64,000 bases of DNA, from NCBI GenBank assembly GCA_965248925.1, contig CBDFLE010000005.1:2144001-2208000 (forward strand), in the 5' to 3' direction. Below are positions 10,982 to 64,000 of this stretch, one piece after another. The position numbers and the translations under genes were made by a program. Below the pieces are notes generated by a model that was not told the origin of the DNA, made no database searches, and worked only from the letters and a program-made list of their open reading frames with translations. Position 1 is the first letter of the stretch. Each line of letters begins with the position of its first letter. The DNA comes from Candidatus Multivoradales bacterium. Its GTDB lineage: Bacteria; Acidobacteriota; Thermoanaerobaculia; Multivoradales; J023.

Positions 10982-10987
10982 GACTCG

Positions 10988-16143: not shown

Positions 16144-16148
16144 GGTGT

Positions 16149-39040: not shown

Positions 39041-39184
39041 CACGCTTCTCCTATGGTATTCGCAGGATCGCTCAACTCTGTGTTGCTTATCACCGAGCTA
39101 ATTCGTCACCGTGCCAGGTTAGAGCCCATCACTGAACAAAGCCATGCTCAAACGTCCGCAAGATCTGTCCATTCGGCTGCGCGG

Positions 39185-39277
39185 CTAGCGCCGGCAAAGC
39201 TATCGAGGACCTCCTGCCGGTCCTGCTGCACTTGCTGCATGCGGTCCTCGCCCACCACCTCGTGCTGGGTATTCGAG
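39185..39277 (-). pseudogene. Displaced TipAS-like fragment
   Basis: QHEVVGEDRMQQVQQDRQEVLDSFAGA resembles the segment missing from the MerR gene 2 kb away. Confidence 0.55.
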
Positions 39278-39404
39278 CCGAGAGCGCGCAACCTTCTTCA
39301 ACCTATGCCGCGGGAGCGAATCACGTGCTATCCCACTGCCCTACCGCCAAATTCTCGGTACAAAGAGGAACGGCCCGAAAGGCGGAGTCCTTTGGTAGCC
39401 TCTG

Positions 39405-39486
39405 CTGAGCAAATCAGTGGCTCCGGGCTGCCTGCGCAAAGTCTCAGGTCCTGTCTTGTTCTGCCCGCTGCCAGGATGCCCTACGG
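39405..39486 (+). ncRNA. Possible degenerate c-di-GMP-I (GEMM)-like riboswitch
   Basis: AGCAAATCAG...CTG...GCGCAAAGTCTCAGGTCCTG...CAGGATG...CTAC in the M28 5' UTR; the GNRA loop and 3' pairing are imperfect. Confidence 0.25.
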
Positions 39487-39502
39487 CGAAGGTCTGTCAA
39501 CA

Positions 39503-42101: not shown

Positions 42102-43802
42102 CTACTCGGCGCCAGTACCTATCAACTGGTATTCACCCTGCTCGAGCACTGGCCCGTCGTAGGCGATCTTTCCGTCAGCCAACTTGATCAAGCGATCGGC
42201 AACGCCGTAGTACTGATCGTCGTGGCTCACCACCAGCACGGTCTTGCCGTCCGCTCGCAAAGCTGGCAACAACTCGTGATAGAAGATGCGCTTAAAATAC
42301 GGATCCTGGTCCGCCGCCCACTCGTCGAAAACATAGATCTGCCGATCTTCCAAGAAAGCCGTCATCAGAGCCAGGCGTTTGCGCTGACCTTGGGACAGCT
42401 CAATAGTCGATAACTTGCCGCCATCCACCTCGACTTTATGATCCAGTTTGAGCTCTTCCAAGAAGTGCCGGGCGCGCGAGTCGACGTTGGCAGAGTCGAT
42501 ACCCAAGAGCTCCTCGAACAGGTAGAAGTCCGAAAAGACGGCGGTAAAAAGCTGCCGATAGCTATCGCGAGTCTGATCCGAGACGACCTCCTGGTCGAGG
42601 AGTATCCGCCCCTTCTCTGGCACGTAGAGCCCAAGAATCAGCTTGACGAAGGTGGTTTTTCCGGTGCCATTGCCGCCGACGATAAAGACTAGCTCGCCAC
42701 GACGAAAAGTCAGATCGATAGGACCCAGATCAAAACCATCTGCCTCGGTCTCCTGATAGTACGTATGTTGCACACCTTCCAAGGTGATCTCGCTCCAATC
42801 GAGATTGCCATTGGTTCCGCTCAGCGCCAGTCCTTCCTCTTCCGCTGATGCCAGCTCTAGTCCCAAGTTCTCGATCTTCTGTACCGCGACCCGGGCACGG
42901 GCCAAGCCCGGAATGATGTTCAGCAAAATCTCTAGTGGGCCCATCAGATGGAGAATCACCAAGACATAGCCGGTCAGAGCCTCACGACTGACCGGGAAGT
43001 AGCGCGGATAGACCAGGATGACACCACCAATGAGGACATAGAACAGAATTTGTCCCCAACTCTGGGCGGCGGTGGTGATCAGCCCGCCACGGTAGGACGC
43101 AGCCTGCTGAAGGGTAGCTGAGGCACGCAGGTGATCTTCGAAAAAGACTGCTCTGCGCTGACTGTGCAGCTTGAGTTCCTTGGCGCCACCGGTGAGCCCT
43201 TGCAGAGCCTTGAACAGAGCGTCCCAATGCTCGCGCGACACCCGCATATGTCCGATCGCCCGAGTCAGCGGAATCTGGTAGGTCACCAGGCCAACACCCA
43301 TCGCCAGCAAGACCACCAGCAGCAAGGGCCAGGAGAGCCAGCCTAGATAGACCAAGCAGCCCACCAGCACCGCGCCATGCATGCAGAGCAAGGGAACGGT
43401 GGAGAGGGCCGCCGAAAGGGATCCGACGTCGTCGGTCAAGGTGGCCAACAAGCGGTGAGGCCCGAGTTGCTCGAGGGTCCGTAGGGGCGAGCCGAGAATC
43501 TTCTTGGCCAGCTGCATTCGAACCTCCAACACCGTCGTCAGCGACAACTTCATCAGCAGCACACTGGAGATGAATCGCGCCACCGGCAATACGACACAGA
43601 GCACCACGAAACCCCACAGGACCCGCGGATCGGTCACTTCGTTGACAGTGCTGAGGGTACGGTTCATCAGCGCTACCAAGCCGACGCTGGCCAAACCGCT
43701 ACCTGCTCCTGCCAGACCGATCATCAGTATCCGCAGACGAGACAAACTGATTTCGCGGGTAAACCGCAGCAGGAAAGAGATGACTTGAGAGATGTCTTTC
43801 AT
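42102..43802 (-). CDS. Cyclic-peptide export ABC transporter (SyrD/PvdE/YojI family)
   Basis: TM domain plus ABC domain: GGNGTGKTT, LSQGQRKRLAL, FDEWAADQDP. Confidence 0.95.
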   Translation of the reverse strand: MKDISQVISFLLRFTREISLSRLRILMIGLAGAGSGLASVGLVALMNRTLSTVNEVTDPRVLWGFVVLCVVLPVARFISSVLLMKLSLTTVLEVRMQLAKKILGSPLRTLEQLGPHRLLATLTDDVGSLSAALSTVPLLCMHGAVLVGCLVYLGWLSWPLLLVVLLAMGVGLVTYQIPLTRAIGHMRVSREHWDALFKALQGLTGGAKELKLHSQRRAVFFEDHLRASATLQQAASYRGGLITTAAQSWGQILFYVLIGGVILVYPRYFPVSREALTGYVLVILHLMGPLEILLNIIPGLARARVAVQKIENLGLELASAEEEGLALSGTNGNLDWSEITLEGVQHTYYQETEADGFDLGPIDLTFRRGELVFIVGGNGTGKTTFVKLILGLYVPEKGRILLDQEVVSDQTRDSYRQLFTAVFSDFYLFEELLGIDSANVDSRARHFLEELKLDHKVEVDGGKLSTIELSQGQRKRLALMTAFLEDRQIYVFDEWAADQDPYFKRIFYHELLPALRADGKTVLVVSHDDQYYGVADRLIKLADGKIAYDGPVLEQGEYQLIGTGAE

Positions 43803-43870
43803 GAATATCCGCTAGAGTGCAAAATCAGAGTGGGAAGAATGCCGCTCTACCAGCAATTCCAATCCAAGTC

Positions 43871-44914
43871 TCAGTTGACCGGTTCAAGGGTGTGAGGCTG
43901 GCCCATCGCGACGATGATCTTACGTGGCCCAGCGAACGCCTCGCGGCCGTGAGAGACCAGGAAGTTGTCGACCAGCAACAAGTCGCTTTGCTGCCAATCG
44001 AAGCGCACTGCCTGACGCTCATAGAGATCCCGCACCTCCCCCATCGCCAGCGAGTCGATCGGCGAGCCGTCACCGAAGAAGGCGTTCCTCGGCAGCTCAT
44101 CTTGGTCGAATTCCTCGAGCAACGCCGCACGCACCCGCGGCTCGAGATTCGATTGGTGAAAGAGGTGCGCGTGATTGAACCACACTCGTTCACCAGTTTG
44201 CGGATGATCGGCCACAACGTGTCGGACCACCCGGGTCCGCAGACGATTCTTACCGCGCCATTCGACTTCCATCCCAGCACTTTTACAAAAGGCTTCGGCA
44301 ACCTCCCGCTCGGTAGTCTGGAACGCTTCTTGCCATGAGATATCAACCCCCTCGCCGTAGTTCCGGACATACATCACTTTCTTGCGCAGAAACTCCTGCC
44401 GCAAGTCTTTGTCAATCAAGCCAAAAATCTTGCGGTCCTCGACCACCGGCGTACGCCCGGCCCGAGTTGGCGGCTGCTGGCAGTAGAACATCAGGCGAGT
44501 CGGACAGGTCTGGGCATAGGACATCTCGTGGTGAAGGGGGATGATCTGACTGGCCGGGAACTCGGTCGAAGTATAGACCCCCTTGGCGACCGACAACCGG
44601 GGCGCTGCACGGTCCTGGTAGTCCAGGAGCTTGGGAACAAAAACCTCCGACACGGCGCGAAATGGCTCCACCCCATCCACTCCAAAGCCCCGAAACAGGA
44701 CCGCCCCCGCGGCGAGCAACTGCTCTTCGATCAGAGCCAAGTTACCGGCTGCCCAATCCCGCAGGTCAACACTGCCTTCGGCCGGCTTCGCCACTCTCAC
44801 AAAGCCGGTTTCCGGCGAGCTTCCGAAACTGACCGCCGCGGCCGAAGACAGGCGAACTGATTTCCGCTGCCGCCGACCCGGTAGGGAGGATGACCGACGA
44901 TTCATCTTCTTCAT
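43871..44914 (-). CDS. SyrP-like TauD/TfdA Fe(II)/2-oxoglutarate dioxygenase
   Basis: GAVLFRGF, YTSTE, LHHE, WFNHAHLFH, DNFLVSHGR. Confidence 0.92.
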   Translation of the reverse strand: MKKMNRRSSSLPGRRQRKSVRLSSAAAVSFGSSPETGFVRVAKPAEGSVDLRDWAAGNLALIEEQLLAAGAVLFRGFGVDGVEPFRAVSEVFVPKLLDYQDRAAPRLSVAKGVYTSTEFPASQIIPLHHEMSYAQTCPTRLMFYCQQPPTRAGRTPVVEDRKIFGLIDKDLRQEFLRKKVMYVRNYGEGVDISWQEAFQTTEREVAEAFCKSAGMEVEWRGKNRLRTRVVRHVVADHPQTGERVWFNHAHLFHQSNLEPRVRAALLEEFDQDELPRNAFFGDGSPIDSLAMGEVRDLYERQAVRFDWQQSDLLLVDNFLVSHGREAFAGPRKIIVAMGQPHTLEPVN

Positions 44915-44963
44915 GATCTCAAAGGCCCCTCGGGCCACGATCCGAACCGCAAACGGATCGCTC

Positions 44964-46034
44964 TTAGTTGGAATTCGGAGTTTCGGTCCTCGCGGTGACA
45001 TCCCGCCAGGCAATCGGAACAGCCATGGCGACCACGATCTTGCGAGGACCCGAGAAAGCAGCTCGACCATGGGCGGCAAGCATGTTGTCCAGCATCAAGA
45101 TGTCGCCTTGCTGCCAGGGAAACTCGACCGTTTCAGCGGCGTAGGCCGCACGTAGTTCGTCGAGGACCGCCGGTTCGATATCTGCGCCGTCTCCGTAGTA
45201 GGTATTGTTCGGCAAGTCTTCCTGCGCAAACCCCGACAACAGAGCTTCGCGGATGCTGGCCTCGAGAGTGCTGAGGTGAAAGAACGTGATGTGGTTGAAC
45301 CAGGTAAGCTCGCCGCTGAGCGGATGCCGCGCTAGAGCCGGTCGCACCTGCGCCGTCCGCAGCCTCCCCTCTGGCAGCCATTGGTACTCAATCTGGCTGC
45401 GCTCACAATAGCCCTCCAACTGACGCCGATCAGAGGTCTGAAAGGCCTCCTGCCAGGTCAGACCGAATCTGCCGTTGAAGTTTCTTACGTAACGATAGCC
45501 GCGATCACGGAATGTCTGGACCACCGCCGGATCGAGTCTGCGTAGCACAGCTCGAGAGTCAGCGATTGGCGTCACGCCTCCCTGCGCCGGCGCGGTTACG
45601 CAATGGAAAGCAATCCTGTTCGGAAAGACCAGATTATATGACTGCTCATTGTGTAGGTAGATCCGCTGGTCTTGCGGTTGGTCGGTCGAGGTGTAGATGC
45701 GGCCTCCGACCTTGGAACGAGGGGAAGAACGCTCAGTATATTCGAGCGCTTCACCACAAGACTGGGTGATGAAGTCCTGGAACTCCGCGACCGACCGGAC
45801 ATTGAAGCCACGGAACAGGATGCCGGCATAGCGAGTCAGCTTGGATTGCAGATCGGTTCGATGTTCGGCCGCCCATTCGATCAAGCTGAGATCGGCCACC
45901 GCGGGCTCGATAACCAACGGCAGGCCAGAGGAATTACCAAGGAACCGCTCTTTGACGAGTTCGCCCTCAGTCAAAGTTACGGTCTTCCTCGCTCTTCGCG
46001 AAATAGAACCTGCCATTACTGAACTACGTTTCAT
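44964..46034 (-). CDS. Second SyrP-like TauD/TfdA dioxygenase
   Basis: GILFRGF, RSSPRS, YTSTD, LHNE, WFNH, DNMLAAHGR. Confidence 0.92.
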   Translation of the reverse strand: MKRSSVMAGSISRRARKTVTLTEGELVKERFLGNSSGLPLVIEPAVADLSLIEWAAEHRTDLQSKLTRYAGILFRGFNVRSVAEFQDFITQSCGEALEYTERSSPRSKVGGRIYTSTDQPQDQRIYLHNEQSYNLVFPNRIAFHCVTAPAQGGVTPIADSRAVLRRLDPAVVQTFRDRGYRYVRNFNGRFGLTWQEAFQTSDRRQLEGYCERSQIEYQWLPEGRLRTAQVRPALARHPLSGELTWFNHITFFHLSTLEASIREALLSGFAQEDLPNNTYYGDGADIEPAVLDELRAAYAAETVEFPWQQGDILMLDNMLAAHGRAAFSGPRKIVVAMAVPIAWRDVTARTETPNSN

Positions 46035-46372
46035 GCCAACTCCTCTCCACAGTTCAAACGGTGACCAGGGCAACCCGAGAGTTTCCGGAAATCGCTGCCT
46101 CAGAGTAATAACTTGAAGAGGAAGATCACCGGGTCGAGCATATACCAAGACTCCCGGAATGAGCGTTTCTCGACTCCGCTCTGAGCACTGCCCCGGCTTT
46201 CGAGAGATCCTTCTGGAAGGTCAGATTCTTTCTGCTTCTCGGCACTTTCTCGAGCCGCGGCTAGAACAGCCTGAGCCCCTCCCCGACCTACTCCGCCTGA
46301 TACACTGAAAACGAAGCGTACTCGCCACAGATTGACCCTTTAGCCAACGACGATTGCCACTGTGGAATCATC

Positions 46373-48817
46373 GTGGAGCGAATATTCATGCTAAGAGAAT
46401 TCTCGGAAGAGCTGCTCGGAACCCTCAAGACCCTGGTCCGATCGCGGCCCCCAGAGATGCTGGCCGCGGTTCTCACCATGGCCCTGGGCTGCTGTGGGGT
46501 GATCACCGCCTTCACCGTCGTCAACGGCGTCTTGCTGCGCCCGCTCCCCTACCCGGAGCCGCAGCAGCTAGTCGCCGTCTGGAATGAGTTCTCCCAGCTC
46601 GGTCTACCCCGCTTGGAACTCTCTGAGCCCGAGTTGATCGACTTCCGGGAGCAAGCCAGCTTCCTGCAAGACATCGCGGCAACCTACGTAGTCGACGCAA
46701 ACGTTACTGGTGGCGGCGGGCCCGAACGTCTTCGCGCGTCGCTGACCTCGGCCAGTCTCTTCCGACTGAGTGGCTTGGAACCTGTGCAAGGCAGATCGTT
46801 TGCCGCCGATGAGGATCAGCGCGGAGGCCCTCGAGTGGCGGTGATCAGCTACCGGTTATGGCAACGGCGCTACGGCGGTTCAGCGGGCGCCATTGGCGAG
46901 GTGTTGTCGCTGAATAGCATCCCGCACGAGATCATCGGAGTGATGCCAGGCGAGTTCCAGTTGCCGGCCGGAGTCGACCTGTGGCTTCCCCTGCGTCTGG
47001 ATACGGAACAGCCGGCAAGACGTTCTGAGCACCTGTACGAGGTGTTCGCTCGGCTCGCGCCGGGGGTCAACTTCGACCAAGCCAATTCCCAGATGCGGGT
47101 GATCGGCGAACGGCTGCAGAGTGAATATCCCAACTACTACCCGGCCGATAGCGGCTGGGGCAGCTACCTGGTGCCGCTGCTCGACGAAGTCACCGGAGAC
47201 AGCCGCCCAGCGCTGTTGGTGCTGCTCGCCGCTGGCACTTTGGTTTTGTTGATCGCTTGCGCCAACATGGCCAATCTGTTCCTCGCTCGAGCCGTCGCGC
47301 GCACCCGTGATACAGCGATCCAGGTCGCCCTGGGCTGTGGTGCCAGGCGGATTGCGATGCGTGGAATCAGTGAGAGCATCGTCGTCAGCTTGGCGGGCGC
47401 AGGGCTCGGATTGCTGATTGCTAGCCTCCTATTGGACGCTTTCCTCAAGCTCTTCCACTCAGTCATCCCGCGAGCGGATATGGTCCAGCTCGATAGACGC
47501 AGTCTGATTTTCACTCTCTTGCTGCCGCTAGCCACTGGCCTACTGCTCGGCGTTCTGACGGGCTTGCAGGGAGTCAAACGCAACTTGGTGACCTACCTCA
47601 AGGAGGGCGGCGAGAAGTCCATGGGCGGAGTGGCCAAAGGCCGACTGCGGAAACTGGTGATCGTGATCGAGACCGCCCTCGGCTTGATCTTGGTCTCCGC
47701 CGCCGTGCTGCTGGCCCGCGGTTACCTCAATCTCCAGCGCGTCGATCCTGGATTCTCTGCTCCGCAGGTGCTGACCCTACAGCTCAATCTACCGACCCGA
47801 GACTACCGCGAGGACACTCAGCTCAACGAGTTCTACCGTCGCTTGCTCGAACAGGTCAATGCCCTGCCGACGGTCGACCGAGCCGGCCTGATCGACTACT
47901 TGCCGTTGGGTGGTATCGAGTCCTCCGGGTCATATTACGTGCCGGAGAGAACCACCGCCGAAGGTGAGATTGCCCCCGAGGCCGACATCCGAGTGATCAG
48001 CTCTGGCTACCTGGAGTCCATGGGCCTCGAGCTGATCCAAGGTCGCGACTTCGCAGCGTCCGACGACACTACCGCTGGACCGGTGGCAATCATCGACCAG
48101 AACCTGGCGCGAAAAGTATGGCCTGATCAGGATCCACTCGGCCGACAAATCAATCGACAAGGACTCGACGCTGCGTACGCGACGGTGATTGGGGTGGTCA
48201 AGTCGGTGCGCAACTCGGGCCTCGACGTGACTTCCCGCGAGCAGCTCTATCTGCCCTTCGAGCAGCAGCCCTCGCGCTCGGTCTTCTTGGCTGTCCGCAG
48301 CCACATAGAGCCCGGCACCATCGTTGAGTCGATTCGACGGCAGGTCATGGCGCTCGACCCTAACCTACCGATATTCGATATCCAGACCATGTCGAATCGA
48401 GTCGACAGCTGGATGCTGACCCGGCGTTTCTCGACTCTTCTACTGGGACTTCTGGCGCTGCTGGCAGTACTGCTGGCAGCAGCCGGCGTCTACAGCCTGC
48501 TGAGCTACATGGTGGCGCGTCGCCAACGGGAGATAGGTCTGCGTTTGGCGCTTGGCGGATTGCGTCGGGACATCTTTCGCTTGATTCTCGGCGAGGCCGG
48601 CAAGCTCGCTCTGCTGGGCATCGCCTGCGGCGTCGTCGGCACCCTGCTGCTGAGCGGCTTCCTGACTTCGCTGATCTACGGTCTCAGCGCCACCGATCCG
48701 CTGACCCTGGTGATCAGCTCGGTGCTGCTGATCTTGGTAGCGCTGGGTGCCAGCTTCTTGCCAGCCTGGCGGGCGACGCGTATCGACCCGATGGTGTCGA
48801 TACGCGAGGCCGATTGA
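46373..48817 (+). CDS. ADOP-family duplicated orphan permease inside the NRPS cluster
   Basis: VLLRPLPYPEP, LLIACANMANL, RQREIGLRLALG, PAWRATRIDP. Confidence 0.92.
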   Translation: MERIFMLREFSEELLGTLKTLVRSRPPEMLAAVLTMALGCCGVITAFTVVNGVLLRPLPYPEPQQLVAVWNEFSQLGLPRLELSEPELIDFREQASFLQDIAATYVVDANVTGGGGPERLRASLTSASLFRLSGLEPVQGRSFAADEDQRGGPRVAVISYRLWQRRYGGSAGAIGEVLSLNSIPHEIIGVMPGEFQLPAGVDLWLPLRLDTEQPARRSEHLYEVFARLAPGVNFDQANSQMRVIGERLQSEYPNYYPADSGWGSYLVPLLDEVTGDSRPALLVLLAAGTLVLLIACANMANLFLARAVARTRDTAIQVALGCGARRIAMRGISESIVVSLAGAGLGLLIASLLLDAFLKLFHSVIPRADMVQLDRRSLIFTLLLPLATGLLLGVLTGLQGVKRNLVTYLKEGGEKSMGGVAKGRLRKLVIVIETALGLILVSAAVLLARGYLNLQRVDPGFSAPQVLTLQLNLPTRDYREDTQLNEFYRRLLEQVNALPTVDRAGLIDYLPLGGIESSGSYYVPERTTAEGEIAPEADIRVISSGYLESMGLELIQGRDFAASDDTTAGPVAIIDQNLARKVWPDQDPLGRQINRQGLDAAYATVIGVVKSVRNSGLDVTSREQLYLPFEQQPSRSVFLAVRSHIEPGTIVESIRRQVMALDPNLPIFDIQTMSNRVDSWMLTRRFSTLLLGLLALLAVLLAAAGVYSLLSYMVARRQREIGLRLALGGLRRDIFRLILGEAGKLALLGIACGVVGTLLLSGFLTSLIYGLSATDPLTLVISSVLLILVALGASFLPAWRATRIDPMVSIREAD

Positions 48818-48827
48818 ACGCTGCTGA

Positions 48828-49442
48828 TCAGGCTTCGATCTGCTCGAGGACCCGGCGTAGTTCTGCTTCCTCACCGATCAGCTGACGCTCGGCCGCAGCG
48901 CGAATGGCGGCGATTTGCTCCGCCGCCCAATCGTGGGTCATCAACTCGGTGAAGTAGATCCGTTTGACCCAGGGTCTCTGCAACTGCTGAATCTCTTCAA
49001 GCACTCCCTCGAGGCCGTGCAGGTCGAGCAGTCGCTCAACCCGCCGCTCGACTCCCAAGCCAGTGCGGCGAATCACCAGCGGCAAATGCTCAGTCAACCA
49101 GCGCTCAGCGGCCGCGGCGGCTAGGGGTTGGTCGTCGAGGGTCACAGCGCGTTGCGGAACTCCGCCAGCCGAGGCCCGATATTCACACCGCACCGTGCCG
49201 CCCTCGCCCGCCTGCCGAATGATCAGATAGCTGCCGGCGGCAAGATGGGCGACGTCGCCATCGTCGTCCGCAAAGATGATCTCACCCAGGGCCTCGACTT
49301 TGTAGAGCGAGCCACTGCCATGGTCTCCCCAATTGTAGATCTCAGCCACCGAACTGTCGGCGACGATCTCCCCACCTCCCGCAGCGCAGAGAGAGGCCAA
49401 GCCAAACATCGCGATCAATACTGAAGTCCATTTCATTTCCAA
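48828..49442 (-). CDS. Secreted hypothetical protein coupled to the NRPS
   Basis: Signal peptide; start overlaps the NRPS stop; GEI.F.DD..DV..L..GSYL and WL...LP.VIRRTGLG.E.RV pattern. Confidence 0.75.
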   Translation of the reverse strand: MEMKWTSVLIAMFGLASLCAAGGGEIVADSSVAEIYNWGDHGSGSLYKVEALGEIIFADDDGDVAHLAAGSYLIIRQAGEGGTVRCEYRASAGGVPQRAVTLDDQPLAAAAAERWLTEHLPLVIRRTGLGVERRVERLLDLHGLEGVLEEIQQLQRPWVKRIYFTELMTHDWAAEQIAAIRAAAERQLIGEEAELRRVLEQIEA

Positions 49443-58400: not shown

Positions 58401-61400
58401 ACCGCCCGAGCAACCCACTCCACCACCAACTGGTGCCGCTCGGCGCGGGCCAGCAGGGGCAGTTCATCCAGCGAGCGCCGAGGATCGTCGAGAGCCCCCC
58501 CGAGGAAACGCTGGTAATAAGCCAGCCAACGCCGCGGGGTCACCGCATCGTACAGATCGGTGTTGTATTCCCAGCCATAGCTGACCTCGTTCGGCTGCTC
58601 GCTGAGGCCAAAGGTCAGATCGAATTTAGCGGTCGTCGAGCTGCTGCTGCTGGTTTGCACCGTTTGTTGGCCGGCGTCGCCACCTCCCTCGGTGGCGCCC
58701 GCTGTCGACTCGGCGGAGTAGAGCATCATCACCTGGAACAGCGGTGAATGCGCCAGGCTGCGCTCGGGTTGCAACTCCTCGACCAGCTTCTCGAACGGCA
58801 GGTCCTGGTGATCCTGAGCCCCCAGAACGCTTTCCCGCACCTGCCCGACCAGTGACTCGAAGCTCAGCCCAGGAGCCAACCTGGCCCGCACCACCAGGGT
58901 GTTGACGAACAGGCCGATCAACGGCTCGAGTTCTTCGCGGCGCCGCCCGGCAACCGGTAGACCAACACTCAGATCGCGCTGGCCACTCAAGCGGTAGAGC
59001 AACGCCAGCAACGAGGCCAAGCCCACCATCAGTCGGCTGGCGCCGTGCTGGCGGGCACAGCGAGCCAGCTCATCCGCAGCGCGGCGATCCATCACCTTGG
59101 CGATACCGGCACCACGAAAAGTCTGCACCGCCGGGCGCGGCCGATCGGTCGGCAACTCGATCTGCGCTGGTGCTCCGTCCAGGGCCCGGCGCCAATAGTC
59201 CAACTGCCGATCGAGAATCTCACCGTCCAACCAGCGCCGCTGCCAGATGGCGAAATCGCCGTAACTCACCGGCAGCTCGGCCAACGGCGATGGGCGACCG
59301 GCGGAAAAAGCTTGGTAGAGGTCGCCCAGCTCGCTCTCCAGAATGCCGATCGACCAGCCGTCGGCGACGATGTGGTGCAGGGTGACTAACAGTCGATGAC
59401 GATCTTCAGCCAAGCGGAGCAGGGTCCAGCGCGTCACCGGCCCGCGCTCCAGCTCGAACGGCCGGCGAGCCTCCGCCGCCGCCCATCGAGCAGCGGCTAG
59501 GGATCTGTCGCTGCCCGACAAGGCACTCAAATCGAGCTGCCCCAAGACCGCTTTAGGAAGCGCTTCGACAACCACCCGCGGCCGGCCCTCCGAGCTACCT
59601 GGGAAACGGCTGCGCAAGACTTCGTGACGGAGCAGTATCGCGGTGATCGCCCGCCCCAGGGCAGCCGGGTTGGCCGGCCCGTCGAGCAGTACCGAAAAGG
59701 GCATGTTGTAGGCCGCGCTGGCGGGCTCGAAACGGTGCAAGAACCACAGCCGCTCTTGAGCGAAGGAGGGCGGGATCTCCTCTCCCGCGGCAGCCGGCAG
59801 CAGCTCCGGCACGGCAGGTACCACGGGCCGCCCCACGGCGCCCGCCGCACCATCACACTGGGCGCGACGGATCGCCTCGGCCAGGCCGGCGACCGTCGGA
59901 TATTCGAATAGCAGCGCCAGAGGAAGCTCCTCGTTAAGCTCACGACGAATGCGGTTGAGCAGCCGCACTGCCACCAACGAATGGCCGCCGAGCTCAAAGA
60001 AATCCTGCAACACGCCGATCGGCCGCTGGTCGAGAACCTCCTCGAAAAGTGCCACCAAACGACCCTCGAGGGCGTCTCGGGGAGCGACGGAGTCCTCTCC
60101 GCCGATCATCTGCGGCTCTGGCAAGGCGCCGCGATCGAGCTTGCCGACCGCGGTCAGGGGCAGCGCATCGAGCCGGGTCAGGGCGGCCGGCACCATGTAG
60201 CTGGGCAGGCTTTCGAGCAAGCTTCGCCGCAGTCCCTCGACCGAGATCGACTCGCTCGCGACCGCGCTCGCCACCACGTAAGCCAAAACCTGCTTGCCCA
60301 AGGTGTCATGGTGGCGGACAACGACCACCGCCTCGGCGATTCCGGGCAGCGCGAGCAAGCGCGCTTCGATCTCCTCCAGCTCGATGCGGAAGCCACGAAC
60401 CTTGACTTGACGATCACTGCGACCGACGAACTCGAGATCACCGCTGGGCAAACGACGAACCAGGTCACCACTGCGGTACAAACGCTGGCCGGGGACATCG
60501 GCATGGGGATCGGGCACGAAACGAGCCGCGGTCAGCCCAGGCCGCTTCCAATAGCCTCGGGCCAGACCCACGCCGCCGATCAGCAGTTCACCCGCCACCC
60601 CCAAAGCAACCGGCTCCCGCGGATCGAGCACCCGCAGAGAGGTGGAGCTGATCGGCCGACCTATAGGCACCGTGCTCGTCGCTTGCTCGGCGACCCGGAG
60701 CACCGGATACCAGGAGGCGAAGGTGGTGCATTCAGTAGGACCGTAGACATGCAACAGGCGGAGCCGCTCAGCGCTCGCTCGCACCCTCCTCACCGCCCGC
60801 GGGTCGCAAGCCTCGCCGCCGAACAACAAGGTAGACAAGCCGGCGAAGGCCCGTGGTAGCTCACGGGCTACCAAATTGAAAACTGCCGTGGTCAAGAACA
60901 GATGTTCGACTCGGCGCCGCTCCAGAACCCCACCCAGCTGCTCGGCGGAGGCCAAGCTCCGCGGCTCGATTCCGACCACTTCACCGCCATTCAACAACGC
61001 TCCCCAAATCTCGAATGTCGCAGCATCGAAGGACGCCGTCGAAGCCTGGGCGAGGCGTTCGGCCGGCCCAACCTGGAGGTAATTGGAGTCCCGGACCAGA
61101 CGCAGAATCGCGGCGTGAGATATCGCCACCCCTTTCGGCCGTCCGGTCGAGCCGGAAGTGAAGATGATGTAGGCCAGATTCGCCGGCTCGACCTGGGCGG
61201 CCAGGGTTGCGCCTTGCTGTGCCTCGAGCCAGGGCCAATCGCGGTCCAGACAGATGACTTCGAGGTCGTCGCTCGGTAACCGCTGCAACAGCCGCTGCTC
61301 GGTGACCAACGCTGCCACCCCGGTGTCTTGCAGCATGAAACGCAGGCGCTCCTCGGGATAGGTCGGGTCGAGGGGTACGTAGAGGCCGCCGGCCTTGAGA

Positions 61401-64000
61401 ATCCCCACCATGCCGACCAGCAGCTCCAGCGAGCGCTCGACGCTGAGGCCAACCCGGTCTTCCACCCCGATGCCGCGCCGCAGCAGCCCGGCAGCGAGCA
61501 GCGAAGACCGCCGGTCCAATTCACCATAGGTCAGGAACTCGCCACCGTAGCTGGCCGCTACCGCAGCTGGCCGCAGATTGACCTGACGCAGGAACAGGGC
61601 TCCGACCGACTCCCAACCAGACCCCGTGCTCGACCCTTCGTCGACCTCTAGGAGCAGTTGGTGTCGCTCGCCGCGGGTGAGCCAGGGGAGGCCGGCCAGG
61701 GGCCGTGCCGGGCTACTGACCGCCGCCTCAAGCAGGGTTTCGAAATGGCCCAGGAACCGCGCCACGGTCGCCGCATCAAAGAGGTCCTTGGCGTATTGCA
61801 GGGTACAACTCAGCGAGTCCTCACTGGCTTCTACCTGGAAAGTCCAATCGAACTTGGCCAAACCGCTGTCCAGGGTCGCCATCCGCCCGCGCCGGGTGAG
61901 GTCCAGCCCAGACCCGCCGGCCGGTCCGCCCGCGAGCTCGTAGGAGTCGCGGGCACGATAGGTGAACATTGTTTGGAATAGGGGCGTCCGCCCCAGCACG
62001 CGCTCCGGCCGCAGTTCCTGCACCAAGCGGTCGAAGGGCAGATCCTGATGTTGGTGAGCTTCCAGCACCGCTTCGCGGACTCGCTGGAACAGTTGCTCGA
62101 AGCTCTCCGCCACCGACCATCGGCTGCGCAACACCAGGGTGTTGACGAAGAAACCGATCAGCGGCTGTAGCTCCTGCCGCTGGCGGCCGGCGATCGGCGT
62201 GCCAACCGAGATATCGAGCTGGCCACTATGCCTGCCGAGCAGCAGCTGGAAAACCGCTAGAGTGAGGATGAAAGGTGTCGACTGGCCGCCGCGAGCAAAC
62301 TCCAAGGCCGCGGCCGCCAAATCTGCGGGCAACCGGCGACGGACCACCGCCGCTGCCGCACGCCGCAGGCCCCGCCGGGGTCGGTCGGTGGGCAAGCCGA
62401 GCAGGTCGGGGGCTTCAGCGAGGCGCTGGCGCCAGAAATCGACCTCGGACTCCAGCAGCGGCCCGGACAACCAGTCTTGCTGCCAGGCAGCATAGTCAGC
62501 GTATTGGATTGGCAGCTCGGCCAGAGCTGCTAATCGACCGTCCACGGCGCTGCTGTAGAGTTCCTCCAGCTCCCGCTGCAGCAGCTCCATCGACCAGCCG
62601 TCGGAGACGATGTGATGCATGCTCACCAGCAATCGGTGAACAGACTGCGACAAGCTCAGCACTGTCCAGCGCAGCACCGGCCCAGCCGTCAGGTCGAAGG
62701 GTTGGCGCGCCTCCTGGGCCGCCCAACGAGCCGCCTCTCGCCGGCCATCTGTGGAGGCCAGGCCAGCAAGATCGACCAGCGGCACCGGATAGGCTTCTGG
62801 CAACGGCACGATCTCTACGGTCGGCCGGTCGGCGACTTCTGGATAGCGACTGCGCAGCACCTGGTGGCGGCTCAGCACCTGGTGGAAAGCCCTACCCAGG
62901 ATCGGCCGATCTAGATTGCCGTCCAGATCCACCGCGAAAGACATGTTGTAGATCGGGCTACCCGGATCCAAGCGATCCAGCAGCCACATGCGCCGCTGAG
63001 CGAACGACAGGGTGGGTCCATGCTGGTCGTCAACAGCCGGCACCAAAGGCGGTAGGCTGGCGGCTGAAGGCCCCTCGATAGCGGTGATCGTGGCCGCCAG
63101 TCCGGCCGCTGTCGGCTGCTCGAAGAGCGCGGCTAGCGGCAGCTCGGTCCCGAGCTCGAAATTGATCCGGTTGATCAGTCGCACCGCCACCAACGAGTGC
63201 CCACCAAGGTCGAAGAAGCTTTGCTGGACGCCGATCGGGCGAACTGCAAACAGCTCTTCGAAAAGCTCCACCAGGCGCCTCTCCAAGGCGTTGCGCGGCG
63301 CCACTAGGTCCACCCCGACCTCGTCTTCGACACTCGGCAGCGCGGCCCGATCGAGCTTGCCATTCGGAGTCAGCGGCAACTCGTCGAGCTGGGTCAAAGC
63401 AGCGGGGATCATGTAGCCCGGTAGCCGCTCTTCCAACCAGCTCTGCAGCTCGCCAAGAGCCAGGGACGATGGGTCGAGAGCCTGATCCAAGGCGGCTATC
63501 ACGTAGGCGTAGATCCGTTGGCCGAGAACCTCGTGGTCGCGCACGATGGCGACCGCCTGCGAGACCTCGTCGAGCTCTTCCAGCAGCGCCTCGATCTCCC
63601 CCAGTTCGATGCGAAAGCCACGAATCTTGACCTGATGATCGAGCCGGCCGAGGTATTCAAGCTCGCCTCCCGAACCTCGCCGAACCAGATCACCAGTGCG
63701 ATAGAGGCGTTCTCCAGCCTGGCCAGCGAACGGATCGGGGACGAAGCGCGCAGCGGTGGCCGCCGGGTGGCACCAATACCCCCGGGCCAGCCCGTCGCCG
63801 CCGATCGACAGCTGGCCAGCAACGCCGAGCACCACCGGTCGCCCTACCGCATCGAGGACATGCAGAGAGGTGTTGGCGATGGGCCGCCCGATCGGCACTG
63901 TCACAGCGCTAGCGGTCGGCGCCTGCAACAGCTTGAAGCAAGCGGCGAAGGTCGTGCATTCGGTGGGTCCGTAGCCGTTCACCAAGCGCACCTCCGGCAA
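49433..64000 (-). CDS. Terminal NRPS (5' end outside window): (A)-T-C-A-T-C-A-T-C-A-T-C-A-T-TE
   Basis: Four C domains with HHIV[SA]DGWS, four full A domains (YTSGSTG/FTSGSTG, YGPTE, GKLDR) plus one partial, five GGHSL carrier domains, TE with GWSMGG. Confidence 0.98.
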   Translation of the reverse strand: MPEVRLVNGYGPTECTTFAACFKLLQAPTASAVTVPIGRPIANTSLHVLDAVGRPVVLGVAGQLSIGGDGLARGYWCHPAATAARFVPDPFAGQAGERLYRTGDLVRRGSGGELEYLGRLDHQVKIRGFRIELGEIEALLEELDEVSQAVAIVRDHEVLGQRIYAYVIAALDQALDPSSLALGELQSWLEERLPGYMIPAALTQLDELPLTPNGKLDRAALPSVEDEVGVDLVAPRNALERRLVELFEELFAVRPIGVQQSFFDLGGHSLVAVRLINRINFELGTELPLAALFEQPTAAGLAATITAIEGPSAASLPPLVPAVDDQHGPTLSFAQRRMWLLDRLDPGSPIYNMSFAVDLDGNLDRPILGRAFHQVLSRHQVLRSRYPEVADRPTVEIVPLPEAYPVPLVDLAGLASTDGRREAARWAAQEARQPFDLTAGPVLRWTVLSLSQSVHRLLVSMHHIVSDGWSMELLQRELEELYSSAVDGRLAALAELPIQYADYAAWQQDWLSGPLLESEVDFWRQRLAEAPDLLGLPTDRPRRGLRRAAAAVVRRRLPADLAAAALEFARGGQSTPFILTLAVFQLLLGRHSGQLDISVGTPIAGRQRQELQPLIGFFVNTLVLRSRWSVAESFEQLFQRVREAVLEAHQHQDLPFDRLVQELRPERVLGRTPLFQTMFTYRARDSYELAGGPAGGSGLDLTRRGRMATLDSGLAKFDWTFQVEASEDSLSCTLQYAKDLFDAATVARFLGHFETLLEAAVSSPARPLAGLPWLTRGERHQLLLEVDEGSSTGSGWESVGALFLRQVNLRPAAVAASYGGEFLTYGELDRRSSLLAAGLLRRGIGVEDRVGLSVERSLELLVGMVGILKAGGLYVPLDPTYPEERLRFMLQDTGVAALVTEQRLLQRLPSDDLEVICLDRDWPWLEAQQGATLAAQVEPANLAYIIFTSGSTGRPKGVAISHAAILRLVRDSNYLQVGPAERLAQASTASFDAATFEIWGALLNGGEVVGIEPRSLASAEQLGGVLERRRVEHLFLTTAVFNLVARELPRAFAGLSTLLFGGEACDPRAVRRVRASAERLRLLHVYGPTECTTFASWYPVLRVAEQATSTVPIGRPISSTSLRVLDPREPVALGVAGELLIGGVGLARGYWKRPGLTAARFVPDPHADVPGQRLYRSGDLVRRLPSGDLEFVGRSDRQVKVRGFRIELEEIEARLLALPGIAEAVVVVRHHDTLGKQVLAYVVASAVASESISVEGLRRSLLESLPSYMVPAALTRLDALPLTAVGKLDRGALPEPQMIGGEDSVAPRDALEGRLVALFEEVLDQRPIGVLQDFFELGGHSLVAVRLLNRIRRELNEELPLALLFEYPTVAGLAEAIRRAQCDGAAGAVGRPVVPAVPELLPAAAGEEIPPSFAQERLWFLHRFEPASAAYNMPFSVLLDGPANPAALGRAITAILLRHEVLRSRFPGSSEGRPRVVVEALPKAVLGQLDLSALSGSDRSLAAARWAAAEARRPFELERGPVTRWTLLRLAEDRHRLLVTLHHIVADGWSIGILESELGDLYQAFSAGRPSPLAELPVSYGDFAIWQRRWLDGEILDRQLDYWRRALDGAPAQIELPTDRPRPAVQTFRGAGIAKVMDRRAADELARCARQHGASRLMVGLASLLALLYRLSGQRDLSVGLPVAGRRREELEPLIGLFVNTLVVRARLAPGLSFESLVGQVRESVLGAQDHQDLPFEKLVEELQPERSLAHSPLFQVMMLYSAESTAGATEGGGDAGQQTVQTSSSSSTTAKFDLTFGLSEQPNEVSYGWEYNTDLYDAVTPRRWLAYYQRFLGGALDDPRRSLDELPLLARAERHQLVVEWVARAVDRRHAPSLPELLAAQAERTPEAVAVRCAGRMLTYGELRARSLGLAGELLELGVRPEQRVGLCVERSVDMLVALWAILDTGAAYVPLDPGFPTHRLAQVVANARPSLIVTERACVERLPAVEIRHWLLDDSIPRAASDAVMLPPKAAQSLAYVIYTSGSTGRPKGVQVSHGALLNFLTSMRRRPGLTAGDTLLAVTTLSFDIAVLELFLPLMVGAQVELVESADAADGARLQELLRGRGVTTMQATPATWRLLLESGWEGSPRLSALCGGEALSADLARRLLPRVGSLWNLYGPTETTVWSSIERIAEVAGSLSIGRAIDNTSLRVLDRTLEVQAIGLEGELYIGGDGVTRGYFGAPALSAECFVPDPFSEHPGARLYRAGDLARRRTDGRLDFLGRDDRQVKLRGYRIELGDIEACLVQSPQVREAVVAVRGEGATGAQLVAWVTTEGAVDGDRLRQFATEHLPGYMVPAVFMQLEALPLLPNGKLDRAALPEPEQQVGRYSAPRSLPEMRMAEFWSGLLGIDEIGRDADFFALGGHSLLATQLVVRIRQSFAVELPIRAVFEQPVLAGLSAEVLAAQTADAASLAPIERLGGTPELSFAQRRLWFLDRLQPGSAAYNMPFAVRLEGPVSVAGLTFAYREVQRRHDVLRSRFPEIDGEPELRLAEDPAAVLPLVDLSGLAAEQRQQEGQWRVRFEAALPFDLGSGPVFRALLLRLEPESHQLLVNMHHIVSDGWSVDLLRRELEVLYQQAVDGSPRGLPALPVQYVDYAAWQRDWLTGSRLEAELAYWRERLAGAPRQLQLPVDRPRQGLHQSLAAARRRVLPAALSSAIHQLSRRYRSTPFIVLLATFQLLLGRYGGRLDVSVGSLIAGRHRREIEELIGFFVNTLVLRARWRSSESFATLLGRVRDQVLEAHDHQDLPFEMLVQELQPERALGRTPLFQAMFTYVAEGGSGEPPVGDGEAGSNAVLSSQPVPLSNGLAKFDWTLQVEERGPELICDLEYDRGLFDPTTAARFLSHFERLAECIAEQPDNATGSLPLLAAAERHQLAQEWNGSAVVRVEDEIPLQQRVAAWAERTPAAVAVVDQQGQLSYAELHRRAIALATRLQTAGVDLEQVVGLYVERSREMVVGALAVLYAGGAYLPIDPSTPDQRVAFILADSPVRIVLASPDLAERLPASVLTWPLADAGAGGGDGDRLPIAGREPENLAYVIYTSGSTGVPKGVGVTLRSLANLVGWCGEDLGFAPGEHIAQAAGVAFDVAAGEIWGSLCHGACLHIVPEALRLSPADLQRWLLAERITVADLPTAIMEVLLDDPWPDSGSLRMLLAGGDRLRLPGPIPGGWQLFNLYGPTEATINASWAKVRFEPGRLPPIGRPLANYHLSVLDRQLERQPVGVPGELCIEGLGLARGYLHRPALTAASFVPVPQGGQAGERMYRTGDLVRYRAEGELDFLGRIDHQVKIRGFRIELGEIEALLEAAEQVSQAVAVVRDHEVLGRRIYAYVVAAADQSADPSRLAIAELRDRLAARLPDFMVPAALTQLEELPLTPNGKLDRAALPEPEQQVGRYSAPRSLPEMRMAEFWSGLLGIDEIGRDADFFALGGHSLLATQLVVRIRQSFAVELPIRAVFEQPVLAGLSAEVLAAQTADAASLAPIERLGGTPELSFAQRRLWFLDRLQPGSAAYNMPFAVRLEGPVSVAGLTFAYREVQRRHDVLRSRFPEIDGEPELRLAEDPAAVLPLVDLSGLAAEQRQQEGQWRVRFEAALPFDLGSGPVFRALLLRLEPESHQLLVNMHHIVSDGWSVDLLRRELEVLYQQAVDGSPRGLPALPVQYVDYAAWQRDWLTGSRLEAELAYWRERLAGAPRQLQLPVDRPRQGLHQSLAAARRRVLPAALSSAIHQLSRRYRSTPFIVLLATFQLLLGRYGGRLDVSVGSLIAGRHRREIEELIGFFVNTLVLRARWRSSESFATLLGRVRDQVLEAHDHQDLPFEMLVQELQPERALGRTPLFQAMFTYVAEGGSGEPPVGDGEAGSNAVLSSQPVPLSNGLAKFDWTLQVEERGPELICDLEYDRGLFDPTTAARFLSHFERLAECIAEQPDNATGSLPLLAAAERHQLAQEWNGSAVVRVEDEIPLQQRVAAWAERTPAAVAVVDQQGQLSYAELHRRAIALATRLQTAGVDLEQVVGLYVERSREMVVGALAVLYAGGAYLPIDPSTPDQRVAFILADSPVRIVLASPDLAERLPASVLTWPLADAGAGGGDGDRLPIAGREPENLAYVIYTSGSTGVPKGVGVTLRSLANLVGWCGEDLGFAPGEHIAQAAGVAFDVAAGEIWGSLCHGACLHIVPEALRLSPADLQRWLLAERITVADLPTAIMEVLLDDPWPDSGSLRMLLAGGDRLRLPGPIPGGWQLFNLYGPTEATINASWAKVRFEPGRLPPIGRPLANYHLSVLDRQLERQPVGVPGELCIEGLGLARGYLHRPALTAASFVPVPQGGQAGERMYRTGDLVRYRAEGELDFLGRIDHQVKIRGFRIELGEIEALLEAAEQVSQAVAVVRDHEVLGRRIYAYVVAAADQSADPSRLAIAELRDRLAARLPDFMVPAALTQLEELPLTPNGKLDRAALPEPELVSSATYGAPRSALERCLVGLFEELLQIPTVGVEQSFFELGGHSLLAVRLLAMIDRELGVEVPLAALFEHPTVALLATLVTAPEQPVSGSPLVRLHRDGTGPPIFWVHPIGGTVFCYLDLAAALPGQPSYGLRVVEGVVAAQPSSVSAMAASYLASLETVQPGGPYRLAGWSMGGVVAFEMARQLQQQGRQVEFLALLDSFVETSADSRPLVDDATLLRLFVSDLLGLAGESLDVDGLDLPTGSITEVKVAELIVRLVASGQIPAEIGPRLGGRLFSIFRRNIKALESYRPGPYSGTVNLFRASDRPGRMADPAANWRSLAARLTVRDVAGTHHSMLRPPQLADLALKLRQLLSFDPLTSSTSEDWK
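50536..56956. repeat. Near-identical tandem duplication, 3189-bp period (T-C-A unit x2)
   Basis: Sequence and all shadow ORFs recur at +3189 (e.g. 50707/53896). One difference noticed: 50654 C vs 53843 T, synonymous Arg. Confidence 0.97.

Follow-up and report, generated by a model that had tools for sequence, protein, structure and literature searches.

Syringomycin-type gene clusters of Pseudomonas combine a large non-ribosomal peptide synthetase (NRPS) with a SyrP hydroxylase, which acts on a carrier-bound residue, and a SyrD exporter, and they derive dehydrobutyrine from threonine. Two other described pathways join Fe(II)/2-oxoglutarate (2OG) oxygenases to proteins that load glutamate. In myxoglucamide biosynthesis, MxgA ends in a condensation (C) domain and a 2OG dioxygenase domain (C-Ox), and MxgB, which loads Glu, opens with a C-like domain that lacks the catalytic motif and clusters with interface domains; the dioxygenase β-hydroxylates Glu on the peptidyl carrier protein, its completion being coupled to the upstream condensation (PMC13638107). 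In the AMB pathway of Pseudomonas aeruginosa (ambABCDE), AmbB consists of adenylation (A), thiolation (T) and C domains, AmbC and AmbD are Fe/2OG oxygenases, and AmbE, which loads Glu, comprises a 461-residue N-terminal stretch of no assigned function followed by A, methyltransferase (MT), first T, atypical C, second T and thioesterase (TE) domains, the atypical C domain grouping with McyA (PMC4357302). Profiles for siderophore β-hydroxylases and interface domains were added in antiSMASH 8, with reference to Reitz 2019 (PMC12230676). Here, we describe an NRPS locus of ~110 kb (C5:2186102-2295734) in Candidatus Multivoradales bacterium (Acidobacteriota), the 3' end of which lies in the 64,000-nucleotide stretch analyzed, referred to as the window (C5:2144001-2208000; C5 is contig CBDFLE010000005.1 of a 7.98-Mb, six-contig genome). 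Its seven NRPS genes, N1 to N7, probably form one 27-module assembly line for a fatty-acylated peptide, in which three TauD-type dioxygenases would act on the carrier-bound residues of two modules that open with a dead C-like interface domain. We put the probability of this explanation at roughly 0.6.

The window contains the C-terminal 4,855 codons of N7 (49433-64000, minus strand) in a frame that stays open to the window end; the complete gene has 11,037 codons (C5:2193433-2226546). The frames preceding it on the minus strand measure 5,823, 5,377, 1,175, 1,939, 2,742 and 5,843 codons, and the whole minus-strand chain consists of nine genes, N1-N2-tauD3-N3-N4-N5-N6-N7-orf204. Starts and stops overlap by 4 nt at N1/N2, tauD3/N3, N3/N4 and N7/orf204 (ATGA), at N5/N6 (GTGA) and at N6/N7 (TTGA), and no more than 25 nt separate the genes at the remaining two, N2/tauD3 (25 nt) and N4/N5. 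All frames are open and all motifs intact across ~100 kb, and the combined synthetase amounts to ~33,700 residues. The domains were mapped with profile models made from the C, A and T domains of the locus itself, and with Pfam for odd pieces (FAAL, fatty acyl-AMP ligase; ACP, acyl carrier protein; E, epimerization domain; C', interface domain; C*, the C domains of modules 6 and 19, treated below):

N1, FAAL-ACP-C-A-T-C-A-T-E-C-A-T-C-A(luciferase-like monooxygenase insert)-T, modules 1-4
N2, C-A-T-C*-A-T-C, modules 5-6 and a terminal C
N3, C'-A(methyltransferase)-T-C, module 7
N4, A-T-C, module 8
N5, C'-A(FkbM methyltransferase)-T-C-A(methyltransferase)-T-C-A-T-C-A-T-E, modules 9-12
N6, C-A-T-C-A-T-E-C-A-T-C-A-T-C-A-T, modules 13-17
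N7, C-A-T-C*-A-T-(C-A-T)x8-TE, modules 18-27

This gives 27 A domains, 27 T domains (plus 1 ACP), 25 C domains of catalytic type, 2 dead C-like domains, 3 E domains and 1 TE, and with its repeated C-A-T modules, intact core motifs and terminal TE the locus is a modular type I NRPS. The serine motif GG(H/D/N)S is kept in 27 of the 27 T domains; it reads GGDSI in the T domains that precede E domains and both C* domains, and GGHS or GGNS in the rest. All 6 protein junctions are complementary, namely T|C, C|interface-A, C|A, C|interface-A, E|C of the DCL type and T|C in the order of the proteins. At the start of the line, the loading domain is most similar, among solved structures, to FAALs (7r7f at 8.6e-150, then FadD23, FadD32 and FadD28; range 8.6e-150 to 3.6e-79), against 1.9e-36 only for the best chain named as an amino-acid adenylation domain, and PF23024 and PF00550 are present in the loading region ahead of a C domain with HHLIGD. 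Judged by these matches, loading is of the fatty acyl-AMP ligase type, FAAL-ACP-C. The single FAAL-ACP loading unit and single TE for the whole line, the complementary junctions and the overlapping genes all argue for one assembly line. Thus, the initial annotation of the window, which had expected a long cyclic (lipo)peptide, is supported as to length and lipidation by 27 modules and FAAL-ACP loading, and the TE would fit a cyclic form; the genes on which it was based (those for the NRPS with TE, the tandem TauDs, the two candidate exporters of the ABC and ADOP types, and a small secreted protein coupled to the NRPS) were recovered where it had placed them or very near. Its remark that no E domains are visible holds for the window part, but three E domains lie upstream.

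We also considered a giant frame beyond N1 (L006:5306+, 5,997 codons; L006 is the adjoining stretch of C5) as a cluster member and discarded it: it encodes CARDB, DUF11 and prenyltransferase-like repeats without NRPS domains, as in a surface protein, and the locus therefore ends there. The cluster contains no MbtH-like gene; the two copies of the genome are on contig C6. The same contig carries a single open frame of 19,437 codons (C6:338809-397122, minus strand), the C-terminal end of which is 40% identical to our A-T-TE query and which is probably another, even larger single-protein NRPS.

On PF00668, the C-like domains that open N3 and N5 reach 93 and 135 bits, compared with 193-367 bits for the other C-type pieces, and they carry LPAMAAD and APLMCLD, respectively, in place of HHxxxDG. 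By motif loss, score and position, they are interface-type, dead C domains; the consensus of the dead motif is LPALxAD, with the Asp invariant in 15 domains. Dead-type domains account for 5 of the 76 C-type domains of the genome, all of them N-terminal in their proteins and all in this cluster or a second one on C6, and these two TauD-bearing clusters also hold all five full-length TauD homologues of the genome, three here and two on C6. The C6 cluster (C6:5098941-5180396) encodes a stand-alone TauD and another that is fused to a 7,268-codon frame at its C-terminal end. Three of its proteins open with a dead C-like domain, and the codes behind these domains are Gln-type, Asp and Asp. The fused TauD sits on the NRPS protein just ahead of a dead C-like domain. 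To survey other genomes, the species-representative collection was scanned with tauD1, the window's own genome being left out, which yielded 80 TauD-centered loci (L013, L014 and others below). In 10 of these, a dead-C model built from two sequences was the best-scoring model for 14 full-length domains. The interface domain in most of the 10 loci opens an NRPS frame that starts at the TauD gene(s) or at most ~2.8 kb downstream, the exceptions being two interface domains inside longer open frames of L014 and two upstream of the TauD gene (L020, L023). Outside our cluster, 17 interface domains (these 14 and the three on C6) thus precede an A domain, with codes of the Glu type (6), the Gln type (3), His (3), Asp (3) or others (2). 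The Glu-type code, DAKDLG(V/L)VDK, comes with an insert of ~300 residues in five complete modules, the sixth module being cut by a contig end, and the insert proved to be an FkbM-type methyltransferase (PF05050) in 5 of the 5 related modules tested.

The actual condensation at these junctions would be carried out by the C domain that ends the preceding protein, N2 or N4. N2|tauD3|N3 and N4|N5 follow a known pattern in this respect, because MxgA/MxgB and AmbB/AmbE share the layout: as in the myxoglucamide system, a C-like domain without the motif opens the loading protein and the preceding protein ends in a working C domain, to which the 2OG dioxygenase is fused unless a neighboring gene encodes it. 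This order is present twice in our locus and again in the C6 cluster. Against solved structures, the N3 interface domain gave weak, unspecific matches (best, Txo1 at 2.3e-18). Its predicted complex with tauD3 had a median score of 0.55 over three runs, against 0.00 for the best of 3 controls, with the runs agreeing in at least 91% of contacts and a partner pLDDT of at least 84, which lends weak support to an interaction. In the calibration, 116 of 157 solved complexes passed the mark, as did 2 of 215 mismatched pairs, and those that passed it with a score of at most 0.60 were just 18 of the 157 and both of the mismatches; these counts hold roughly, because our own alignments were used. Interface domains have been described in siderophore systems with Asp and His substrates, whereas the codes here are of the Gln and Glu types and are accompanied by methyltransferase inserts. 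Siderophore lines with interface domains are also short, in contrast to the 27-module lipopeptide line here, and no gene for a TonB-type receptor was seen among the open reading frames (ORFs) scanned around the cluster, a scan that was not aimed at one.

The C domains that end N2, N3 and N4 and the C-like domains that open N3 and N5 could also mark the borders of two or three separate lines (N1-N2, N3-N4 and N5-N7), in which chains would be released or passed on by the last C domain of N2 and of N4, as terminal C domains can do in other systems, and the dead C domains are starters or docking elements. Such a division strikes us as very improbable. There is just one loading module and one TE to be shared among the lines, the genes are joined by 4-nt overlaps, and the domains that open N3 and N5, in which the catalytic His pair is missing, cannot act as starters. 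Furthermore, the junction "...T-C | (TauD) | dead C-A-T" recurs in other genomes as well as in MxgA/MxgB and AmbB/AmbE.

In the favored explanation, the residues to be hydroxylated would be those of modules 7 and 9, and the candidate hydroxylases are three, not the two of the initial annotation: the two tandem genes it had found in the window, and a third upstream, between N2 and N3, which was detected in a tauD1 search of this genome and 30 relatives.

44964..46034, minus strand, tauD1, Fe(II)/2-oxoglutarate dioxygenase (PF02668, E 1.2e-45)
43871..44914, minus strand, tauD2, Fe(II)/2-oxoglutarate dioxygenase (PF02668, E 4.3e-37)
C5:2269194-2270282, minus strand, tauD3, fills the ~1.1-kb gap between N2 and N3; 55% identical to tauD1

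The coordinates of tauD1 and tauD2 refer to their likely starts, the ORF frames of ~400 codons overlapping each other. tauD3 begins 25 nt past the stop codon of N2, and its own stop overlaps the start of N3. The iron triad H-x-E...H (H131, E133 and H325 in tauD3) is invariant in 19 of 19 aligned TauDs, and the nearest solved structures are At3g21360 and 9yut. The best matches in the species-representative scan, 52-59% identical, came from Acidobacteriota, Thermoanaerobaculia and other contigs of metagenome-assembled genomes (MAGs), and TauDs of actinomycetes, a Pseudomonas MAG, Paraliomyxa and Sorangium were 42-53% identical. A maximum likelihood tree was calculated for 48 TauDs, 5 from this genome and 43 from 33 loci (66 rows, mostly actinomycete, were left out). 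TauDs adjoining Asp modules form a clade of their own (support 100), which does not include tauD1-3, and those adjoining His modules form another (99). The sister of tauD3 (support 96) is the stand-alone TauD of the C6 cluster, where an interface-A(Gln-type) module is likewise present, and tauD1 groups with TauDs adjoining interface-A(Glu, FkbM)-T modules (L014, L017, L022 and L068). tauD2 belongs to an 11-member clade (support 100), in which 10 members come from other loci: 9 of these have another TauD gene directly ahead of them, and the tenth (L029) is on a 5.7-kb contig. Synteny links the tauD1+tauD2 pair to interface-A(Glu code, FkbM)-T modules (L022 and L068) and to an AmbE-like module (L030).

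Judged by their gene order, their place in the tree and the architecture of the modules, tauD1-3 are probably matched to modules 7 (Gln code) and 9 (Glu code), in line with the suggestion of the initial annotation that the hydroxylated residues are encoded upstream of the window. tauD3 would serve module 7, giving β-hydroxy, N-methyl-Gln, and the conserved pair tauD1+tauD2 would serve module 9, giving an oxidized, O-methylated Glu derivative, as AmbC and AmbD do with AmbE. The likeness to the AMB pathway lies in the tandem 2OG oxygenases and in the order [N-domain]-A(Glu)-MT-T after an NRPS that ends in a C domain. Unlike in that pathway, module 9 leads to an ordinary C domain and 18 further modules, with no C*-T-TE, and the TauD pair lies ~55 kb from module 9 on the DNA. 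The C domain that follows module 9 and leads to module 10 is of the LCL type (499.7 on an LCL-based model) rather than a CmodAA domain, the type of the atypical C domain of AmbE, so that an AMB-like, decarboxylated methoxyvinylglycine is an unlikely product. An AmbE-like cassette is also found within a larger NRPS in L030 (a Streptomyces griseoluteus record; 9881-16889), where it reads TauD-TauD-[~390-residue N-domain]-A(FkbM)-T-CmodAA.

The principal alternative for the hydroxylases is that they are SyrP-type β-hydroxylases for carrier-bound Asp (or Asn or His), with module 21 as their site here and the dead C-like domains having no role. The initial annotation had assumed such targets and expected an Asp, Asn or His module upstream; there is indeed one Asp-coded module, module 21 (DLTKIGHVGK), but none of the 27 modules has an Asn or His code. 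Interface-linked TauDs elsewhere do serve Asp- and His-coded modules, the TauD genes of the window are nearer on the DNA to N7, which holds module 21, than to N5, and one system worked in vitro without its interface domain (PMC13638107). Module 21, however, opens with an ordinary C domain and lacks an interface domain, and the separation of the Asp-adjoining TauDs from tauD1-3 in the tree, the synteny of tauD1+tauD2 with interface-A(Glu, FkbM)-T and AmbE-like modules, and the translational coupling of tauD3 to N3 all point elsewhere. We consider the Asp-module assignment unlikely, and the targets are probably not Asp, Asn or His, the codes pointing to Gln in module 7 and Glu in module 9.

The specificity codes were extracted from a MAFFT alignment of all 27 A domains, with columns anchored on A4, A5 and A10 (FDxS, GGE, YGPTE and GK of a Gly-coded domain), and the extraction was repeated with hmmalign:

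m1, DVGDTGIVNK, Arg-type
m2, DVWHISLVDK, Ser-type, then E
m3, DAWQFGLIDK, Gln
m4, DILQLGMIWK, Gly-type, monooxygenase insert
m5, DFWNVGMVHK, Thr-type
m6, DILQLGLVWK, Gly-type
m7, DAWQFGLIDK, Gln, methyltransferase
m8, DARHLALMTK, no residue given
m9, DAKDLGVVDK, Glu-type, FkbM insert
m10, DAWQFGLID-, Gln, methyltransferase
m11, DVWEMSADNK, no residue given
m12, DVWSVAMVHK, Thr-like, then E
m13, DAWDLGVINK, no residue given
m14, DFWNIGMVHK, Thr, then E
m15, DVWHISLVDK, Ser-type
m16, DAWQFGLIDK, Gln
m17, DVLQIGLVYK, no residue given
m18, DFWNVGMVHK, Thr-type
m19, DVWHISLIDK, Ser-type
m20, DAFFLGVTFK, Ile/Val
m21, DLTKIGHVGK, Asp-type
m22, DVNHLSLIEK, Ser-like
m23, DALFIGGTFK, Val-like
m24, DAFFLGVTFK, branched aliphatic, Ile/Val
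m25, DILQLGLVWK, Gly
m26 and m27, DVGDLGLINK, cationic, probably Arg-type

The five codes first read in the window are identical in our extraction, the truncated one (...GTFK) being completed to DALFIGGTFK for module 23. Gly (by the canonical code), Glu and Ile/Val are putative assignments. For other codes, documented assignments exist: DAWQFGLIDK stands for Gln (PMC8313283), and DFWNIGMVHK for Thr or dehydrobutyrine, DVWHLSLVDK-type codes for Ser or dehydroalanine, DLTKVGHVGK for Asp/Asn (mostly Asp) and DSALIAEVWK for His, with the β-hydroxylated form accepted (PMC12283262). DIGDLGIIDK has been linked to an Arg-derived residue and equals DVGDLGLINK at 7 of 10 positions, the three differences being conservative (PMC12283262), and by this comparison the residues of modules 26 and 27 are probably Arg-type. 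A search of the available literature text for the codes of m8, m11, m13 and m17 and for both DVGD-type codes gave no occurrence; likewise, the code strings searched were absent from the supplement of PMC12283262, and a two-term code search of the literature gave no match.

From the genes, domains, motifs, synteny and phylogeny observed, we infer the substrates, tailoring chemistry and release mode as follows. Assembly would begin with a fatty acid, which is adenylated, loaded and then joined to residue 1; collinear extension would follow to a length of 27 residues, in the predicted order acyl-X(Arg-type)-D-Ser-Gln-Gly*-Thr-Gly-Gln*-X8-Glu*-Gln(Me)-X11-D-(Thr-like)-X13-D-Thr-Ser-Gln-X17-Thr-Ser-Ile/Val-Asp-(Ser-like)-Val-Ile/Val-Gly-X-X, and the TE would release the peptide by hydrolysis or cyclization.

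Besides the TauDs, several embedded domains would modify this chain. The C domains of modules 6 and 19 carry NHxxxDG, the first His being replaced by Asn, and each follows a Thr-coded module (5 and 18, both DFWNVGMVHK). The nearest solved structures of the module 19 domain are McyA (8jbr, 4.2e-107) and the AmbE C domain (7r9x, 1.1e-58), and our own profile models assign the module 6 domain to the same type. These CmodAA-type domains probably make dehydrobutyrine; the likeness to the solved CmodAA domains is that they follow Thr, the difference is the motif NHxxxDG, and dehydration is predicted from this context. A heterocyclization (Cy) reading of the NHxxxDG domains was rejected, their own A domains having Gly and Ser codes and the nearest solved relatives, as found with the module 19 domain, being the CmodAA domains of McyA and AmbE.

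The Gly-coded A domain of module 4 harbors, between its motifs A4 and A5, a luciferase-like monooxygenase (PF00296, E 9.8e-53), as in PuwE-type embedded monooxygenases, and the nearest solved structure of this insert is PuwE itself (6ket, 1.5e-114, 386 bits). It probably α-hydroxylates the Gly of this module. MtaG and MelG of the myxothiazol and melithiazol pathways also have embedded monooxygenases; in MtaG, this is in the last module, and the hydroxyglycine breaks to a terminal amide, α-hydroxyGly being the labile intermediate that yields the amide in myxothiazol-type pathways. Unlike in MtaG, the monooxygenase module here is number 4 of 27. A far-fetched but conceivable consequence is that an in-chain α-hydroxyGly at position 4 splits the released 27-mer, spontaneously or with assistance, into an acyl-tripeptide amide and a 23-mer with an N-terminal glyoxylyl group, a cleavage device in which the M28 peptidases flanking the cluster and the first C domain of N2, with its HHLIGEASS motif, might share. 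If true, the peptide would carry its own step for releasing a leader or a pro-drug, something that is not known from NRPS lipopeptides.

An E domain stands after each of modules 2, 12 and 14, and the next C domains open with the DCL-type motif (Y/L)PL(S/T/A)PxQxG(M/I/L)L; by this count, just three residues should be D-configured. Dual E/C domains in N7 were considered and rejected: by eye, the first 45 residues contain no second HH motif, and the domains begin in the LCL manner (LSFAQxRLWF).

The window part of N7 encodes the following units, all on the minus strand:

49511..50230, TE, the sole one (PF00975, E 5.6e-29), in the C-terminal 288 residues of N7
50270..53485, module 27, C-A-T, code DVGDLGLINK
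53462..56674, module 26, C-A-T, code DVGDLGLINK, duplicate of module 27
56651..59827, module 25, C-A-T, code DILQLGLVWK
59843..63073, module 24, C-A-T, code DAFFLGVTFK
63059..64000, end of module 23, A from about residue 6183 and T, code DALFIGGTFK; the gene runs past the window

Modules 26 and 27 form a perfect tandem repeat of 3,189 bp, i.e., 1,063 codons in frame (window ~50530-53785 versus 53719-56974). Because they are perfect tandem duplicates, the C-terminal X-X hangs on the repeat copy number and is the least secure part of the predicted peptide; of the ending (Val)-Ile-Gly-X-X proposed in the initial annotation, the codes stand, and the X-X depends on this number. Reads were consulted as short-read unitigs and contigs (Logan) from 4 public runs of one sample in one study, possibly the source of the assembly itself; no RNA run was among the listed holders of this DNA. 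The unitigs collapse the repeat, and none bridges it. The depth of the repeat unitig relative to its flanks (25.9/12.8, 34.3/14-17.2, 12.2/6.97 and 29.8/16.5-21.4 in the 4 runs, or 1.4-2.4x) fits two copies, with the limits that word depth is no copy number and that the runs are not independent. Part of what is seen could be an assembly artefact, or the cluster could be decaying or silent; with a mis-assembled repeat, the true end would be Gly-X, or Gly and more than two X. Except for about one base, identity between the copies is 100%, the data set is of the metagenome type, and no contig from the 4 runs of the one sample bridges the repeat; against this, the duplication is exactly one module, in frame, ~100 kb of frames are open with their motifs intact, and the collapsed unitig has the depth relation expected of two copies, subject to the limits just given. 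We regard an artefact or a decayed cluster as improbable.

Several observations weigh against parts of the favored explanation. The substrates are read from 10-residue codes, and 6 of the 27 (m8, m11, m13, m17 and the two DVGD-type codes) have no documented match. Module 21 is Asp-coded and could host a SyrP-like action of one of the TauDs, and module 9 is not followed by the CmodAA, second T and TE of the AmbE layout. The complex prediction lends weak support to interface recruitment, and the interface domain of MxgB was dispensable in vitro (PMC13638107), so that "recruitment" of the hydroxylases by the interface domains is a proposal. The first C domain of N2 (residues ~110-560), the acceptor for the monooxygenase-Gly donor, reads HHLIGEASS instead of HHxxxDGWS. 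Finally, the collapse of the 3,189-bp repeat in the short-read unitigs counts here as well.

The genes next to the NRPS in the window comprise two candidate exporters, a small secreted protein and a peptidase:

42102..43802, minus strand, cyclic-peptide ABC exporter of the SyrD/PvdE type, permease and ATPase fused (TIGR01194, PF00664, PF00005)
46373..48817, plus strand, ADOP permease (TIGR03434), 814 codons, divergent from tauD1
48828..49436, minus strand, orf204, 204 codons, hydrophobic N-terminus, small secreted or lipid-anchored protein
39053..41887, plus strand, membrane M28 peptidase (PF04389, E 4.5e-47), possible flank member, uncertain

The ABC exporter, a 566-codon ORF with its ATG at 43802, is the last gene of a tauD1-tauD2-ABC operon and scores 497.7 bits on TIGR01194 (cut-off 286.2). 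The ADOP permease scores 808.9 bits on TIGR03434 (cut-off 622.3), has two stretches each of PF12704 and PF02687 (MacB_PCD+FtsX halves), and is a candidate second exporter or immunity pump. An ADOP permease and/or a TIGR01194 exporter, together with a TauD pair, directly follow the NRPS TE in L013 and L016, with the ADOP gene placed between the TE end and the pair, a 46%-identical homologue of the ABC exporter adjoining the TauD pair in L016, and an ADOP permease lies by the pair in L028. This recurrence supports the two exporters as cluster members, as first annotated, and export would be by the TIGR01194 ABC transporter, possibly by the ADOP permease too. The related clusters do not end alike, L013 finishing with a Glu-type and a DAWTVAAVCK module, and since the terminal A codes differ, the relatives make other peptides. 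A second ADOP-like permease (window 11180-13606, plus strand; 2x MacB_PCD + FtsX) is ~30 kb from the cluster end.

The ATG of orf204 overlaps the N7 stop codon (ATGA), with GGAGGA upstream. The protein matches no Pfam or NCBIfam family; homologues are present in 27 of the 121 genomes of the order (this genome included), in frames of 266-1,117 codons, and both homologue frames tested carry PF05569, Peptidase_M56 (BlaR1/M56). By this homology, which is to the C-terminal region of BlaR1/M56-type sensors, orf204 may be a free copy of the extracytoplasmic domain of a sensor. A second membrane M28 peptidase (L006:985-3432, plus strand), the sole paralogue of the first with 36% identity over 810 residues, is encoded beyond the other end of the cluster. 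Close to it and to the cluster start lies an aspartate/ornithine carbamoyltransferase paralogue (L006:3362-4381, plus strand; C5:2298362-2299378), which could relate to the supply of Arg-type residues; the other two paralogues, on C6, show 34% and 27% identity. Farther into the window, 14255-23484 (minus strand) contains a run of genes that probably serve to modify polysaccharides (glycosyltransferase, PIG-L deacetylase, GNAT, methyltransferase and AlgX-like), with an unusually strong plus-strand AT skew (0.23-0.25), and a DDE transposase (PF13701; 30965-32278, plus strand) is ~10 kb from the exporter end of the cluster.

Compared with the syringomycin type, the locus has fused FAAL-ACP loading, separate E instead of dual E/C domains, three TauDs, interface domains, an ADOP permease and embedded MT and monooxygenase domains, and it comes from another phylum; neither the species-representative TauD scan nor the terminal-module search of 23 family genomes showed sequence orthology to that type. 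The terminal A-T-TE has no match above 47% identity, and no orthologue, in the 23 genomes of the same family, and literature searches on Acidobacteriota lipopeptides and NRPSs, at the level of listings and abstract openings, and on 27-module lines brought up no corresponding compound. Judged from the family genomes, the TauD scan and the literature text, the pathway is apparently uncharacterized, which agrees with the initial annotation, in which the combination was not recognized: terminal-module identity is at most 47%, TauD identity at most 59%, and six unusual codes are absent from the literature text that could be searched. Known counterparts exist for the FAAL loading, the interface/TauD arrangement, the CmodAA domains, the embedded MT and monooxygenase and the SyrD-type exporter; what stands out is the 27 collinear modules, the two interface modules with Gln and Glu codes, and an AMB-like cassette without its CmodAA partner.

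To our knowledge, the longest bacterial non-ribosomal lipopeptides are the syringopeptins, with 25 residues, and a 27-mer, if one line makes it, would be longer. We also know of hardly any characterized natural products from the source phylum. The "...T-C | dead C-A-T" junction explains the apparent break in collinearity, and automatic tools may split such clusters. The combination of a TauD pair with interface-A(Glu)-FkbM-T appears as a portable, AMB-like cassette of Acidobacteriota, Myxococcota and Streptomyces, here set within a long peptide. With three TauDs, two interface modules of the Gln and Glu types, and an Asp module without an interface domain as internal control, the locus would be a natural test of interface domains.

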